Shown in pieces: positions 12,310 through 41,562 of a stretch of DNA of 64,000 nucleotides. Under the pieces are notes generated by a model that was not told the DNA's origin, did not search any database, and saw only the letters and a program-made list of their open reading frames with translations. This stretch comes from Rhina ancylostomus. Lineage: Eukaryota. A program made the translations under genes and the position numbers. Location of the stretch: assembly GCA_030265395.1 (NCBI GenBank), contig JARFYF010000001.1, forward strand, positions 99,089,011-99,153,010. The letters run 5' to 3'. Within the stretch, counting starts at the first letter, position 1; each line of letters opens with the position of its first letter.

Positions 12310-12500
12310 ATGTTACAAGTAGAAGATATCAGACAACATCTGCGATCCCTGGAAGCAGATTACCAGGAACTTGTTGCACTTCTTTCGAGGCACAGCGGGA
12401 CTGTACCGGTACATCGAAAGTTAAAGCAGAAAGGGCAGAACACAGTGAAACATGGCAAACTGTGGGCACAGCTTAAATTACAGCGGCAGAAAGATATTTG
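12310..12500 (+). CDS. SAM-domain gene, exon 1 (coiled coil MLQVEDIRQHLRSLEADYQELVALL...QKDIW)
   Basis: ATG with A at -3; frame is also open back to the acceptor ctcag|12271; donor TG|gtattt, phase 2. Confidence 0.7.
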
Positions 12501-12863
12501 GTATTTATCCAAAGAAAGAACTGATGAGATGAACTGCAAAATGTAACGTTTTGAAATGTGTTCATTTCAGTGTGATATGACTAAAATACAAACCTCAAAT
12601 TATTCCTGATCAGCAAGCTAAGTAAAGATAATTGACAGTGAAGATACCATCCCAGTAATTTATCCCAGCAGATTTATAGGAAATACAAACAGTACAGTTA
12701 TAAAATGCCATAGATTTATGACGTGTTTCCAAAACTTCGAGTACCTAAGTGCATACGCAATGGCATACTGCATTGCCAGTTTTTCAGGGGAAGTTTTGTT
12801 GCATTGTTTTAAGTATGTTTTCTATGAATTGGTCTGCACTTTGTATTCCATTGCTGTGTGCAG

Positions 12864-12922
12864 GAGATTGAAGGTCAGAACCTACGATGAGACGACAGGG
12901 CAGTACCAAGGAAAAACTATAG
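12864..12922 (+). CDS. SAM-domain gene, exon 2, RLKVRTYDETTGQYQGKTI
   Basis: ttgctgtgtgcag acceptor and AG|gtagca donor; this is the only stop-free frame and it matches the exon 1 phase. Confidence 0.6.
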
Positions 12923-14439
12923 GTAGCAGGGCAAGGATCTGCATTTTGTAACCTGACCTGTCTTGTCCACAAAACATTTTAAATTTCTGCAGAGCATGTT
13001 AATTCTGAAATGCAATCACCTTTTAGGTGACACAGCAGGTGCATAAACTCCCAGAAGTGTATTGTGAACTCCCTTGGTCTGCCGTGCATTGCACTACATG
13101 TTCTTTTAAATCCACTTGGGAAGACTGATGTATTTTGGCAGGGGCTTTGGATAGGAGTGTTGTAGAGTGACAGATCTGTACAGCATGGAAGCAGGCTTTT
13201 CTGCCCATGAGTATACCCCATCCATCAAGCAGCAATCTACACTAATCCTATTATGTACTTTGTATATTCCCATTAACTCCCCCCAGACTCTGCCAGTCAC
13301 CTATACACCAAGAGCATTACAACAGTTCCAGTCACATAGTCTGATAAATGTTGGCAGTTCCCTATGGAAGGTGAGAACCTTAACTGAAAGAGAACAGAAC
13401 AACAGCATTGTTCAGAGTTATTTAATAGAGGGTAGGATTTTACCTGGAGTAGTTATGTCAAGAAGTCTAATTTGTGAACACTGGACATTTGTAAGTATTT
13501 TCTCACTTGATTCCCAAACTGATTAGCTGCATATGACCTATCTTGGTACACAAGAAATCAATTTTTGATATGCTCAGAATTGATTTTAAAAAAGAAAAAT
13601 CCAAAGATGGAAAAAAAAATTTTTACAATCGCAAAAAAATTATAATTAAACTTTAGCGATTTGAACTAGCAAGATATTGTGGAGGTAAGCTGAAATACAG
13701 TGTACATGTGACAAAGGTTCCAAAACTGCTATTTTCCTGCACATCTTTAAATGACAAGGCAGAGTCTGGCACTCAGTCATTTGGTTTAAATACCACTGAT
13801 GTCAACCAAGTCATGCAGTTGCTGTGAATCTGAAATAAAACTAGAAATTGATGGAAGTACTCAGCACGAATCTGATGAAAGCTCATGGAGCCAAAATGCT
13901 AATTCTATTTCTCTCTTCACAAATGCTGCCTGACATGTTGAGTGTTTCTTGATTTTCCTCCTTTTATCACTTTCCATTCATTATTGTTTGCTATTTCTTT
14001 TCCCTTTGCACCTTCTCCACTGGTAAAAGCTATCAGTGGGTATAGAATGCCTTCAGAGATTTTAGAGATTGTTATAATGTTTGGTCCTTCTTCCTGCCAC
14101 TTTCTTTTAATTGTCTGTCCCCTGATAAGTTTTGACCTCCACCATCCATGTACTTTCTGAACCTGCCCAAACAGAGATGTGAATAATTATGCAAATCTTG
14201 AAATCTCCTTTTGCAAGCTTACTGTCTTTACAAGATTTGCTCCAGTTCTTTACTATTTAGAACTGACTGATGAAAAGAACCCAATTCTCTTTCCCCTATA
14301 AAGCTAAACTTAAACTCGGGCTCATATCTACTGTCCCGTCCTAAGATTTAAATTAATATCAGTCGTTGCTCACTTGATTCCTTCACTAATTATTCCATGT
14401 CCTGTATCATGGTTTGACATCTATTCCAACCTTTTATAG

Positions 14440-14458
14440 CTGTTCAAATATGTATCTG
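14440..14458 (+). CDS. SAM-domain gene, candidate 19-nt microexon (A)VQICI(C)
   Basis: ttccaaccttttatag acceptor and CTG|gtaagt donor; phase 1 to 2 exactly bridges exon 2 and the 15039 exon. Confidence 0.5.
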
Positions 14459-38175: not shown

Positions 38176-38859
38176 CTCTGTGATTGCTTTCCTGTGTTAA
38201 GTAGTGTTCATTGTTCTCCTCTATTGAAGAATGATAGATAAATAGTCATTCCCAAAGAGACAGCATTACTCTTACAGCCTATTTTTCTATGCACTCACTA
38301 TTAACAGCAAAAAAGTAAGTAGCAATGAGTAGGTTTTTGGTGGGTAAGAGGTGCTTGCTTACATGGGCAATGACACCTTCAATTATTTTGGAGATGAATG
38401 AAAATTAACCTGTGCAAAGGTTATTAACTGGATTGGATTTGTCCCTTTTGTGGGTAAGCCAAGGACTGACACACTTATCCAAAGGTGGGTAGATGTTACT
38501 TTTGCTGAAGGCACGAATAGATCTGAAGCAAGGTGTCCAGTATGATGACTTGGATGTTGTCTGGGCCCATGGTTTTGTTCAGTACTTAGTACTATAGTGT
38601 GGAATGAACTGAACGATTAGATTCTATGATGGAAGAAGTCTCAAGAAGATTGCTGAGATGGAGCATGCTATGAGCACTTGAGGTGGGTGCAGGTTGCAGA
38701 TGCTTTGGCATGGCCCCTTGATGGGCTCTACTGTGGTTGAGGATAGGGGTGTTCCTGGAGCTTCCTCCAATTGTCACCTGTGATATATGTTCCATTAAGG
38801 TACAAAAACCCAACTGTAATAGTGGTTCATCTTTGGCTGACAGGAGAAATTAGAATTAG

Positions 38860-40015
38860 TATTGAGTGTAAGGAAGAGGCTAGTAAAGATTTCAGACAGA
38901 GCAGCATACCTAAGAATTGGGAGCATTTTAGAACTCAGCAAAGGAGAAGACTGAATATGAGAGTAAATTAGTGACAGACATAACAAAGTACTTTGCGAAA
39001 AGGAAAGGGCTTGCGCGGGCAGAAGTGACTGCCTGACTGACATAGCTGGGAGAAGTTATAACAGGGAATCAGGAAATGGCTGAGGAATTAAGTTTGTGTC
39101 CATGTTGACAGGAGAAAACCCAAACATCCTGCTGGAATTACCAAAGTTGTAAGGGTCGAGGTGAGCTGAAGGTAAAGGAGTACTCGTGAAGTTGATGAGA
39201 TCAAAGCTGGAAACATGAAAGACCCAATGATGCATCTGCTGGAGTTCAGAAAGAGGTGTTTCTTGACAGAGTGAACATTACAGTTATCATCTTAAGTTAT
39301 TCACAAGTGTGATTGTGAATTGATGGGGAGCAGATGCAAGCCCACTATTTTAGAAAGGAAGCGATGGGGAAGAAATGGCCTTTTAACCTGAGGTTAGGGA
39401 TGGGGAAGGTGCTGGAGCCAATGGTCCAAGCTGGAAGAATAGTGCACTTCGAAAAGAATAATAGGAATAAGTAAAGTTGGTATGGATTTATGAAAGGAAA
39501 ATCTTGCTTAACTGATGTGCTGGAGTCCTTTCCAGATGGGCCATATAGAACGGATAAGGGGAACATGTGAATGTGAATTTTCAGGTGGCTTTTAATACGT
39601 ATGTTGGTCAACATGGCCAGAGTACACAAAATGGTGGTCGATGTGTTGTGAATGTGAAGTGTAGAATGAGAATTTGTAATGGTAGAGAAGGGAAGGAGTG
39701 CCAGGATGTGGTGAGTGGAGTTCCATGGGGTTTGGAGTTTGCACTCTGGACTCCAGGTATTTATGACGTACAGGTCTGATTTAGTTGAGGGGACCAAATC
39801 TCAAACTTTCAAGTTTGCAGATGATGCTAAATCAGGTGAGGTTGTAAAGAGGCTTCAGGGACGTGTAGATAAACTAAGTGAGCGTACAAGAATATGGGAG
39901 ATGCCATGCAAGATAGAGAAGTATGAAGTTATACACTTTGTTGTACTAATAGAACAGCAGTAGCTTGAATGCTGAGAGATGTTATTGATGTTCAAAGAGA
40001 CCTGGGTGTCCTTGA
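38860..40015 (+). mobile_element. Old CR1 LINE fragment
   Basis: YGFMKGKSCLT, VVSGVPWG and FKFADDAK remnants. Confidence 0.8.
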
Positions 40016-41418
40016 GGCATTGTCAAACTCTTCAACTATTTTGAGAAACTGAGAAGAAAATGCAAGTTGGAATTGTTTATCAACTTCAGTGGTGATAATT
40101 AGCACAGAAGGAAAACTAAGACAATTGACAATTATTTTAAAAGCAAATATACAACAATTAAACTGCAAGGGAATATAGCACTGCAGTTATAATAAAAATT
40201 TTTAATCTCAGGGAGAATCACTAGTGGCAATAAAGAAAGACTTAGTCATTTAAAGAGTAAATAACTTTCCCCAATGTTATACAGCCATTCTAAGTTGTGT
40301 CTAATGTGTAAGTGCAGCATTAATGTTGCTCTATGCATCTGAAAGATGATGTAAACAAACGTGCACTCTCCCTGTCCAATGGATTCCTGTATGTCAACAA
40401 GTTGAGCATTCACTGGCCTGTCTGGTGCTGGGTCAAGTACACTAACTGTCCCACGATAGTCTAATATACATCTGACTGCCAAGTTTGGACCATTTAAATT
40501 GCTGTGACCTAGGAGTAGATTTCTGGCAGCCTGTATCTGTTTATATCAGCCTATATCTATATCTCTACATGATTAACCCTTCTGTGCAATGCCCTCTGGT
40601 CAGATGATTATTTATCGTCTTCAATGAATTCGACCTTGAAACGGCAGGCTCCTGTGCCCACTGTGGTATTCATGAGCTTGTGGTTCAGTTATCACTGTTG
40701 AAAGATTTGATCCTGCTGCACTCCAGTGCCACCTGCTGTTTGACATTGATAAAATGAAAAGTTGAGAATTTAATCCATTAATAAGTAAAAGCAGCAAGGA
40801 AATACTTAAATGTATTTCCACTTTTGGATTAATGTGAAATGCTGATAAGACAAAGTATTGCATTTGAGCACACAGTGACCAAAATTATAAAGAATACCAT
40901 GAAACTGGGGGCACTTGACTTTGAGGCTGTCAAAAGAATGAAGGGAAATGTAAGATATTGCAGGTGAATAAACAGCATGGTGTGGCATATGGTCCTGTGT
41001 GCATACACAACCAGAAAGACATGGTGGTGGGAGAAGAAAAGTTTTGTCTGTCATCTCCTTACCTCCCCACAACTCCTCTCATGGATCTCACGGTCTGCAT
41101 TGACATTGCTGCACTCACTGAAATAAATGTGCCCCAAGTTTTACTGTACACATTTTCCTGGAGCAAAAGACCATAAGCAGGAGTGCAGAGACAAATATTG
41201 AACTAAGCCACTATGGTTATGGACTGACTAGTTGTTTGACTCTTTCAATTTCCTAAACTTCCTTTAGAAAGATCATTCAACAGCAGTTTTAACAAACTAG
41301 TTTTTATTTGGAATTTTTTTTTCTTCAGTCTAAGGAAAATAAGCTGTAGTTTTACAATGTATTTAATTAGTGAGTGCCAATCTTTGTTTAATGCCCTGAA
41401 TTTGCACTTTGCTCCTAG

Positions 41419-41562
41419 CACTACACTCCATTGTTCGAAAATGCTGGCATAGGTTTCACTGAGCTTCCTTACTTGGATGAGGAGAGTCTGGAAAAACTCG
41501 ACATTCCCATGGGACCAAGGCTTCATATTCTCCGAGAGATCAGATGTACCACCTATGTATGA
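41419..41562 (+). CDS. SAM-domain gene, terminal exon HYTPLFENAGIGFTELPYLDEESLEKLDIPMGPRLHILREIRCTTYV*
   Basis: gcactttgctcctag acceptor, phase 0; canonical SAM pattern Y...F....I....L..L....L..L.I..G.R..IL; ends in TGA. Confidence 0.92.
   Translation, partial: HYTPLFENAGIGFTELPYLDEESLEKLDIPMGPRLHILREIRCTTYV

Follow-up and report, generated by a model that had tools for sequence, protein, structure and literature searches.

A spliced coiled-coil-SAM gene in Rhina ancylostomus appears to belong to an unnamed animal family that was likely lost in bony vertebrates

The stretch of Rhina ancylostomus DNA analyzed here (the window, 64,000 nucleotides) carries a spliced, intact gene of elasmobranchs, represented by its 3' two-thirds. 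On balance, the evidence tips slightly towards a reading in which this gene belongs to an unnamed pan-animal family, was inherited through the chordates, was lost from bony vertebrates and encodes a protein predicted to be a scaffold rather than an enzyme.

Seven GT-AG exons within positions 3104-41562 (Table 1), all of them open, join in frame to encode 502 amino acids. The resulting protein aligns with that of the stingray Hemitrygon over 502 of 502 columns without a gap, and 361 of these (71.9%) are identical. The start codon lies upstream of the window, and full-length batoid orthologues are about 720-760 amino acids long. A preliminary description of this DNA had started translation at the ATG at 12310 and predicted a protein of about 243 amino acids. 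That codon specifies an internal methionine, as its exon begins 83 nt further upstream and is preceded by two other coding exons, and the batoid orthologues indicate a true length about three times greater. The larger of these two exons is skipped in some isoforms annotated in other species, being missing from P0003, P0010, P0011 and P0012. Acceptor scores of the seven exons range from 0.2 to 6.3 on rough matrices.

Five of the eight exons proposed previously (the one ending at 12500 and the four that follow it in Table 1) are genuine, flanked by GT-AG splice sites and joined in frame, while the other three, of 59, 19 and 36 nt, are spurious. Coordinates had not been given for the 59- and 19-nt exons and the eight-exon model was therefore reconstructed from candidates. 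All 15 candidate combinations produced an open frame of 732 nt (243 amino acids), and an open frame therefore lends support to neither exon. Both are missing from the orthologues, and the reconstructed model scored below the five-exon join against 13 of 13 homologues. A 327-nt X1 contig from a different organism, a relative, splices 12500 straight onto 15039. This single contig (depth 2.4, from a sequencing run of unrecorded type) constitutes the spliced evidence; X1 coverage is lacking over the candidate 59- and 19-nt exons, a gap that is given no weight on its own. At the other end of the 274-nt exon, an X1 contig matches positions 12226-12304, and its remaining 80 nt are unlike the upstream intron. 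The 36-nt exon likely corresponds to 31964..31999 on the + strand, the sole candidate giving KFLR, which was judged intronic; its acceptor is weak (-2.7), and the insert is lacking in all 11 elasmobranch proteins that span the junction. The likeness once drawn between this KFLR and the invertebrate KFF is a product of the spurious exon, the block actually being eroded in elasmobranchs. The AATAAA reported after the gene is present. The gene was indeed missed by the open reading frame track, but NCBI already annotates its orthologues in 13 elasmobranch species.

Table 1. Features of the window, with positions counted from its first nucleotide
Feature	Position	Strand	Evidence
Coding exon, 89 nt, first inside window	3104..3192	+	tblastn 70% to Mobula P0001; AG/GT, in frame
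Large coding exon, 720 nt, low-complexity, likely disordered	5856..6575	+	66-69% to Mobula/Hemitrygon
tRNA-Val(AAC)-like gene in intron, separate from protein gene	10142..10214	+	ARAGORN; Rfam RF00005 46.7 bits
Coding exon, 274 nt, heptad helix 1	12227..12500	+	Homology, GT-AG, in-frame join; X1 contig
Coding exon, 163 nt, long heptad helix 2, family signature block	15039..15201	+	83-88% to batoid orthologues
Coding exon, 62 nt, linker and eroded pre-SAM helix	19622..19683	+	Homology, GT-AG, in frame
Coding exon, 58 nt, SAM helix 1	34420..34477	+	Homology, GT-AG, in frame
Last coding exon, 144 nt including TGA, SAM helices 2-5 and T-Y-V C-terminus	41419..41562	+	Pfam SAM_2 28.6 bits
AATAAA, candidate polyadenylation signal	41643..41648	+	N gap begins at 41679

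No neighboring gene was found between 41.8 and 64 kb, where none of 136 open frames of at least 48 amino acids reached the Pfam cut-off; a rough splice-site scan returned 10 candidates, all unsupported. A 21-amino-acid shark-specific exon was not seen in the window among the rows of the first query.

From its disordered N-terminus the protein runs through two heptad helices and a SAM domain to a C-terminus that is hydrophobic and conserved. The two coiled coils and the C-terminal SAM domain recognized previously both hold up: the heptad segments reach 0.73 and 0.66, above the 0.59 that marks the 95th percentile of shuffled sequences, and the last exon (41419-41559) exceeds the curated SAM_2 cut-off of 20.5 bits, orthologues scoring 27.6-38.7. 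The order of heptad helix 1, helix 2 bearing RF..LE.H, and SAM matches that of an unnamed pan-metazoan coiled-coil-SAM family. In an AlphaFold2 model of the Heterodontus orthologue (P0011), the helices span residues 347-373 and 397-466 and are followed by a five-helix SAM domain (495-549); block pLDDT exceeds 90 in the two helices and the SAM domain and is 91-98 in the SAM helices, and most of the N-terminus falls below 50. The modeled SAM domain matches solved SAM structures with Z of about 10-11, the best matches being tied among the SAM domains of plant Tric1, tankyrase, SANS and BICC1 (Z 10.4-11.1). Foldseek returned no match at E<=0.001, the helices being barely probed by fold search, and matches in the ESM Atlas were solely to arthropod-dominated SAM clusters. 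Many invertebrate members, from sponge to amphioxus, also possess a calponin-homology (CH) domain. None was detected in elasmobranch, tunicate or arthropod proteins with Pfam or a CH profile built from the family (the 5' exons of the window gene being out of view), and the domain was likely lost before the tunicate-vertebrate split.

The C-terminal residue is V, I or L in 78 of 89 family proteins, compared with a background of 16%, and under the PDZ-motif class definitions the tail fits class I or II in 70 of the 89. All nine elasmobranch proteins and the window gene end in [ST]-[YF]-V, a sequence pattern like that of a class I PDZ motif, and the tail lies exactly 10 residues past the SAM motif in 9/9 elasmobranchs and 3/3 named tunicates. 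Protostomes mostly have a hydrophobic-X-hydrophobic tail; a hydrophobic end is absent in the sponge and several cnidarian members. The conserved C-terminus looks like a PDZ-binding motif.

SANS (USH1G) and ANKS4B are similarly built at this end, with a C-terminal SAM domain and then a short tail whose sequence pattern is PDZ-motif-like, and their SAM structures are among the tied best matches (3k1r, Z 10.8; 5f3x, Z 10.3). The SAM-PBM of each binds NPDZ1 of harmonin, according to PMC5493754. The elasmobranch gene nevertheless resembles them in the SAM domain only (29% and 24% identity) and has long coiled coils instead of ankyrin repeats, of which no match was found in 6 + 39 family proteins. 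N-terminal ankyrin repeats define SANS and ANKS4B, which are further characterized by binding to myosin 7 as well as to harmonin NPDZ1, and the likeness is one of functional analogy, not orthology. The mechanism that we infer, which has about an even chance of being correct, is that of an oligomeric SAM-PBM adaptor with putative binding. The long helix would form a homo-oligomeric coiled coil presenting several SAM-plus-tail units, whose tails could dock into PDZ domains in the way that harmonin engages the SAM-PBM of SANS and ANKS4B, and this docking would gather PDZ scaffolds into clusters at the cell cortex. In the ancestral protein, the CH domain likely served as an anchor on the cytoskeleton, and additional binding partners are likely recruited through short helical motifs of the disordered N-terminal region.

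Alternatively, a gene of the same history could encode a SAM domain that mainly polymerizes or binds nucleic acid or lipid, with the tail packed on the SAM domain or coiled coil and not serving as a PDZ ligand. SAM domains are known for polymer and RNA roles, the top structural matches are tied among the four SAM domains named above, and the GP that opens the last SAM helix is nearly invariant in the family. This GP is replaced in Mobula and Hemitrygon, however, and hydrophobic ends are kept after variable insertions of 35-72 residues, which fits a free C-terminal ligand; the alternative is rather unlikely.

Computationally annotated genes in Mobula (LOC134357276), Leucoraja (LOC129700311), Amblyraja (LOC116976912) and Scyliorhinus (LOC119957921) are orthologues of the window gene, with 56-72% identity and the same exon joins. 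They have neither name nor function, Pfam SAM being their sole family assignment, and across the 13 shark and ray species NCBI labels the orthologues 'uncharacterized'. Beyond elasmobranchs, the family includes Ciona LOC100179383, Exaiptasia LOC110231314, Tribolium LOC100141693 and an amphioxus 'sickie-like/NAV2' protein, all from an unnamed invertebrate (CH)-coiled-coil-SAM family that has both heptad helices, the SAM domain and the hydrophobic end. The suspected resemblance to uncharacterized invertebrate proteins is borne out by identities of 41% over 238 columns with amphioxus and 43% over 153 with Ciona. Neuron navigators (NAV2/sickie) are defined by a CH domain and a C-terminal AAA ATPase; the amphioxus member (P0016) has CH and SAM only and elasmobranch members lack both CH and AAA. 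As previously surmised, any likeness to named human SAM proteins is confined to the SAM domain, the best human PDB match being the USH1G SAM domain (E 5e-5). Members occur in a sponge, cnidarians, protostomes, echinoderms, amphioxus, tunicates and elasmobranchs. The gene is ancient, as proposed, but older than the bilaterian origin assigned to it, given its presence in the sponge Corticium, corals and an anemone. No description of the family or its LOC identifiers was found in the literature; the one match lists a beetle orthologue in a table of elevation-associated genes (PMC11247348).

The gene was likely lost in bony vertebrates, judging from its distribution in protein collections. It occurs in elasmobranchs and in invertebrate chordates (amphioxus and tunicates), and these collections yielded no member from bony vertebrates, chimaeras, lampreys or Drosophila, in line with the earlier suggestion of loss in many bony vertebrates. 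The accompanying suggestion that cartilaginous fish kept the gene holds for elasmobranchs; no chimaera member turned up. With chimaeras and cyclostomes also unrepresented, the pattern requires gaps in annotation or more than one independent loss. It is possible, if doubtful, that some bony vertebrates (or chimaeras or lampreys) retain an unannotated or too diverged copy and that 'lost' is overstated. The absence is known from protein collections, word-based searches were insensitive (one returned a single invertebrate), and annotation is fragmentary even in sharks. The HMMER search of 1.84 billion representatives gave 507 matches at E<=0.001, of which 150 were listed, many of them unnamed (names were looked up for 30 of 146 new representatives). 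On the other hand, an elasmobranch-weighted profile gives the sponge protein 123 bits, which a full-length bony orthologue should outrank, and none of 159 proteins looks vertebrate apart from elasmobranchs. Fifteen of these 159 were closer to the elasmobranch than to the invertebrate profile, all of them named elasmobranchs, and in the tree no unnamed row fell within the elasmobranch clade or adjoined it.

Loss in the bony lineage, the favored explanation, has precedents. The whale-shark paper (PMC8455134, Appendix 2) counts 208 families that chondrichthyans kept and osteichthyans lost, and an AdoMet-MTase is given as an example of such a gene (PMC3466250); the distribution is the same, and the family is unnamed in either passage. 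Supplement 5 of the whale-shark paper includes several small SAM-only orthogroups of 2-6 taxa, and the present family may be hidden among the 208. Among flies, no Drosophila or other cyclorrhaphan protein was among the 120 listed of 362 matches, which include 34 named other dipterans. Drosophila Samuel/Moses, presumed at one point to be a possible family orthologue, was dropped since no Drosophila match was among those listed and no literature link was found.

Elasmobranchs differ from the invertebrate family in lacking CH, in the erosion of the pre-SAM KLTKFFG block and in retaining 38 of 55 columns conserved among invertebrates. The gene could be decaying under relaxed selection, part of the way towards the loss that other vertebrates have completed, an improbable reading that draws on the long elasmobranch stem branch (0.61-0.66), the 17 of 55 changed columns, Narcine models without SAM and partial models in Carcharodon, Cetorhinus and Chiloscyllium. 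Against it, each of the seven exons is open, 9/9 elasmobranchs keep the tail motif, and in comparison with stingrays the helix-2 and SAM exons (46/55, 17/20 and 32-36/47) are better conserved than the large exon (160-167/240). The ancestral function may have shifted or relaxed in elasmobranchs, in view of the 38/55 columns, the long stem and an Asp in the window where Gly is invariant in the other 89 rows.

The gene was likely inherited through the chordate line. An N-terminal motif is common to elasmobranchs (14 proteins), three tunicates and amphioxus and absent from the other 141 of 159 proteins; its profile gave a held-out Styela protein 20.8 bits and the rest at most 0.1. This chordate-only motif supports vertical descent. 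Fragments from invertebrate gene callers break, as indirect evidence, at the same three intron positions. A tree of 123-125 C-terminal columns, leaving out P0036, P0091 and P0147 (mis-predicted ends), clustered the window with Mobula and Hemitrygon; it did not yield the placement of elasmobranchs, and in AU tests a chordate, a cnidarian and an arthropod sister all remained unrejected (p 0.31-0.44). Transfer of the gene from a marine invertebrate to the elasmobranch ancestor, by a horizontal route, would suit the patchy vertebrate distribution and these unrejected non-chordate sisters but is highly improbable given the chordate-restricted motif, tunicate-like tail, CH loss shared with tunicates and common intron positions.

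Losses of this kind are already known for about 200 families, NCBI already predicts the orthologues, and the function is a prediction, all of which tempers interest in the gene. Tentatively, and at somewhat less than even likelihood, these proteins could represent a scaffold family that is found across animals, dates back to sponges and has not been described; it would link the cytoskeleton (through CH) to PDZ complexes (through the coiled coil, SAM domain and PDZ tail), and would have gone unstudied because it was lost in humans, mice, zebrafish and fruit flies alike. Among vertebrates, sharks and rays alone would carry it, in a form that lacks CH, has a class I tail and is shared with tunicates. 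Apparent loss in both the bony lineage and Drosophila would explain why a conserved family has no name. The gene offers a case, open to testing, in which an ancient animal gene reached jawed vertebrates and is seemingly gone from the bony lineage and apparently also from Drosophila, and Ciona, Tribolium, mosquitoes, sea anemone and skate are tractable hosts that carry it.

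The locus is a real, intact gene once its exon structure is corrected. The 163-nt exon as query retrieved 10 proteins among 11 candidates, all "uncharacterized" proteins of 460-878 aa from sharks and rays, and tblastn of these proteins gives seven collinear blocks in the window. The seven exons together form a single open frame of 502 aa whose product aligns gaplessly with the Hemitrygon protein (361/502 identical) and matches that of Mobula at 354/502, and about 215-260 N-terminal residues are encoded 5' of the window.

Features of the gene, its introns and its 3' flank
Feature	Coordinates	Strand	Basis or position
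Coding exon 1 in window	3104-3192	+	tblastn block, AG/GT edges
Coding exon 2 in window	5856-6575	+	tblastn block, AG/GT edges
Coding exon 3 in window	12227-12500	+	tblastn block, AG/GT edges
Coding exon 4 in window	15039-15201	+	tblastn block, AG/GT edges
Coding exon 5 in window	19622-19683	+	tblastn block, AG/GT edges
Coding exon 6 in window	34420-34477	+	tblastn block, AG/GT edges
Coding exon 7 in window, last	41419-41562	+	tblastn block, AG/GT edges
AATAAA	41643	+	3' of last coding exon
tRNA-Val(AAC)-like gene	10142-10214	+	intronic; Rfam 46.7 bits
33-bp tandem repeat, 5 copies	15373-15535		intron flanking helix-2 exon
High-copy interspersed repeats	13814-13948; 15270-15370		introns flanking helix-2 exon

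The preliminary description was thus right that an intact gene lies here, and the motifs it quoted occur on the + strand at 15046, 34421-34477 and 41461-41523, but its eight-exon, 243-aa structure needed correction. Its proposed start, ATG 12310, falls within the third exon. Its 59- and 19-nt exons would together lengthen the protein by 26 residues and its 36-nt exon by 12, and the reconstruction containing them fares worse than the plain join against 13/13 homologues. Whichever of the 15 tried pairings of a 59-nt with a 19-nt candidate is used, the 243-aa frame stays open, so that an open frame alone is no proof of these exons. The 36-nt candidate (31964-31999) is rejected on two counts: its acceptor is weak by rough matrices, and its insert is absent from 11/11 informative proteins.

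Three read runs were compared with 11800-15370. In X1, a run of unrecorded type from a relative, depth within this interval is confined to exons and repeats. A 327-nt X1 contig (depth 2.4) places 198 nt on 12302-12499 and 129 nt on 15038-15166 with 11 mismatches and nothing between, which is the splice 12500|15039. A second contig fits 12226-12304 while its other 80 nt do not match the upstream intron, supporting the acceptor at 12227. The join 12500|15039 exists, on one contig from a relative; minor isoforms may still occur. Alternative splicing is suggested for the 720-nt second exon, which annotated isoforms in Narcine, Scyliorhinus and Heterodontus omit. Intronic open frames at 6900-7520, 20887-22440, 35024-37220 and 38000-38250 resemble decayed LINE reverse-transcriptase pieces, and an open stretch at 53300-53482 (-) had the top splice-site score in a rough scan, its frame having no Pfam match.

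Searched with a HMMER profile, a set of 1.84 billion representatives contained 507 matches at E<=0.001, of which 150 were listed; 30 of 146 new representatives were looked up, yielding 22 named clusters. These comprise Branchiostoma, Glandiceps, Patiria, Antedon, Ciona, Clavelina, Styela and further sharks, together with Porites, Corticium (a sponge), Lineus, Bugula, Macrostomum, a rotifer, Priapulus, a tardigrade and insects; a separate protein search found an Exaiptasia member. Named elasmobranch orthologues come from 13 species. With a sandfly query there were 362 matches, 120 of them listed; where these carry a name, it is that of an insect or, once, of a barnacle. These 120 include mosquitoes, midges, sandflies, a soldier fly and a long-legged fly, and no Drosophila or other cyclorrhaphan despite 34 named dipterans; the family was possibly lost on the Drosophila line. 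The amphioxus member (cluster P0016) carries the database name "NAV2" or "sickie-like", apparently from its CH domain alone, and Pfam finds only CH and SAM in it.

The suggested loss in bony vertebrates agrees with all protein searches, in which no bony vertebrate, chimaera or cyclostome occurs among the named matches (for the profile search, those among the 150 listed of 507). The elasmobranch profile fits better than the invertebrate profile in 15 of 159 proteins, all 15 named elasmobranchs, and no unnamed row falls within the elasmobranch clade of a tree that left out short unnamed fragments, which supports the loss, short of proof. Judged from protein collections, the family was probably lost in bony vertebrates. 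An elephant-shark cDNA paper gives one methyltransferase gene as an example kept in chondrichthyans and lost in osteichthyans (PMC3466250).

Both trees unite the window sequence with stingrays and devil rays (SH-aLRT 94 in one, 99/93 in the other), which makes a batoid source likely. The C-terminal tree does not settle the elasmobranch sister group (AU p 0.31-0.44 for four alternatives); amphioxus takes that place at SH-aLRT 82 in one tree and is drawn to the root in the other. Fourteen elasmobranch proteins share with Ciona, Clavelina, Styela and amphioxus an N-terminal motif of 22 residues that is absent from the other 141 proteins; its second half (ERL..LL), also found in an anemone and a crinoid, is older than the whole. 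The tail has the same length in elasmobranchs as in the three named tunicates and ends [ST]-[YF]-V in both. The CH domain, found in members from a sponge, cnidarians, echinoderms, a nemertean and amphioxus, is absent from both groups. The C-terminal module of the window has three introns, and fragments from invertebrate gene callers are interrupted at their positions: 13 enter the intron after LGYE, 7 end before FFG and, leaving aside one false case among the 10 listed, 9 begin before the helix-2 block. These positions, read from fragments rather than genomic alignment, would be common to invertebrates and the window. Motif, tail, CH absence and introns point to descent of the elasmobranch gene through the chordate line.

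The elasmobranch stem branch is long (0.61-0.66). Of 55 columns with conservation of 85% or more across 80 invertebrate rows, elasmobranchs retain 38 and the window 35; the pre-SAM KLTKFFG block is eroded in elasmobranchs, and at 41500-41502 (+) the window reads Asp where all 89 other aligned family rows have a SAM Gly. The SAM domain is absent from the Narcine models, and several shark models are partial. Annotation failure, a functional shift or decay may each explain the divergence and the incomplete models. The models that lack the SAM or are partial are P0003, P0006, P0010, P0014, P0021 and P0189 (from Narcine, Scyliorhinus torazame, Cetorhinus, Chiloscyllium and Carcharodon); that of Carcharodon runs through the donor that corresponds to 12500.

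For the Heterodontus orthologue, AlphaFold2 (82-sequence alignment; mean pLDDT 59.8, pTM 0.33) predicts confident helices at 347-373 and 397-466, both with heptad patterns exceeding shuffles, and a five-helix SAM; the N-terminus is of low confidence and has two short helices where the conserved motif lies. Solved SAMs of Tric1, tankyrase, SANS, BICC1 and ANKS4B match near-equally (Z 9-11) and PDB sequence searches give only SAM-level or generic coiled-coil matches, so that no one named human SAM protein stands out, in line with the preliminary description, which recognised none. The C-terminal residue is V, I or L in 78/89 family representatives (background 16%), and by the usual definitions 14/89 match class I and 56/89 class II PDZ-ligand patterns (backgrounds about 3% each), counts that are inflated by kinship. 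The terminal residues persist after insertions of up to 72 residues. SANS and ANKS4B, which bind harmonin, offer a model for such a contact (PMC5493754). The product could be an oligomeric adaptor whose SAM-plus-tail would dock on PDZ scaffolds, the ancestral CH domain, missing from the shark version, having served as a putative tether; this proposed mechanism we regard as evenly balanced between right and wrong. Literature searches, confined largely to openly accessible papers, found no description of the family or its LOC identifiers (NCBI names of the orthologues), and the gene is a member of an apparently undescribed pan-metazoan SAM scaffold family.
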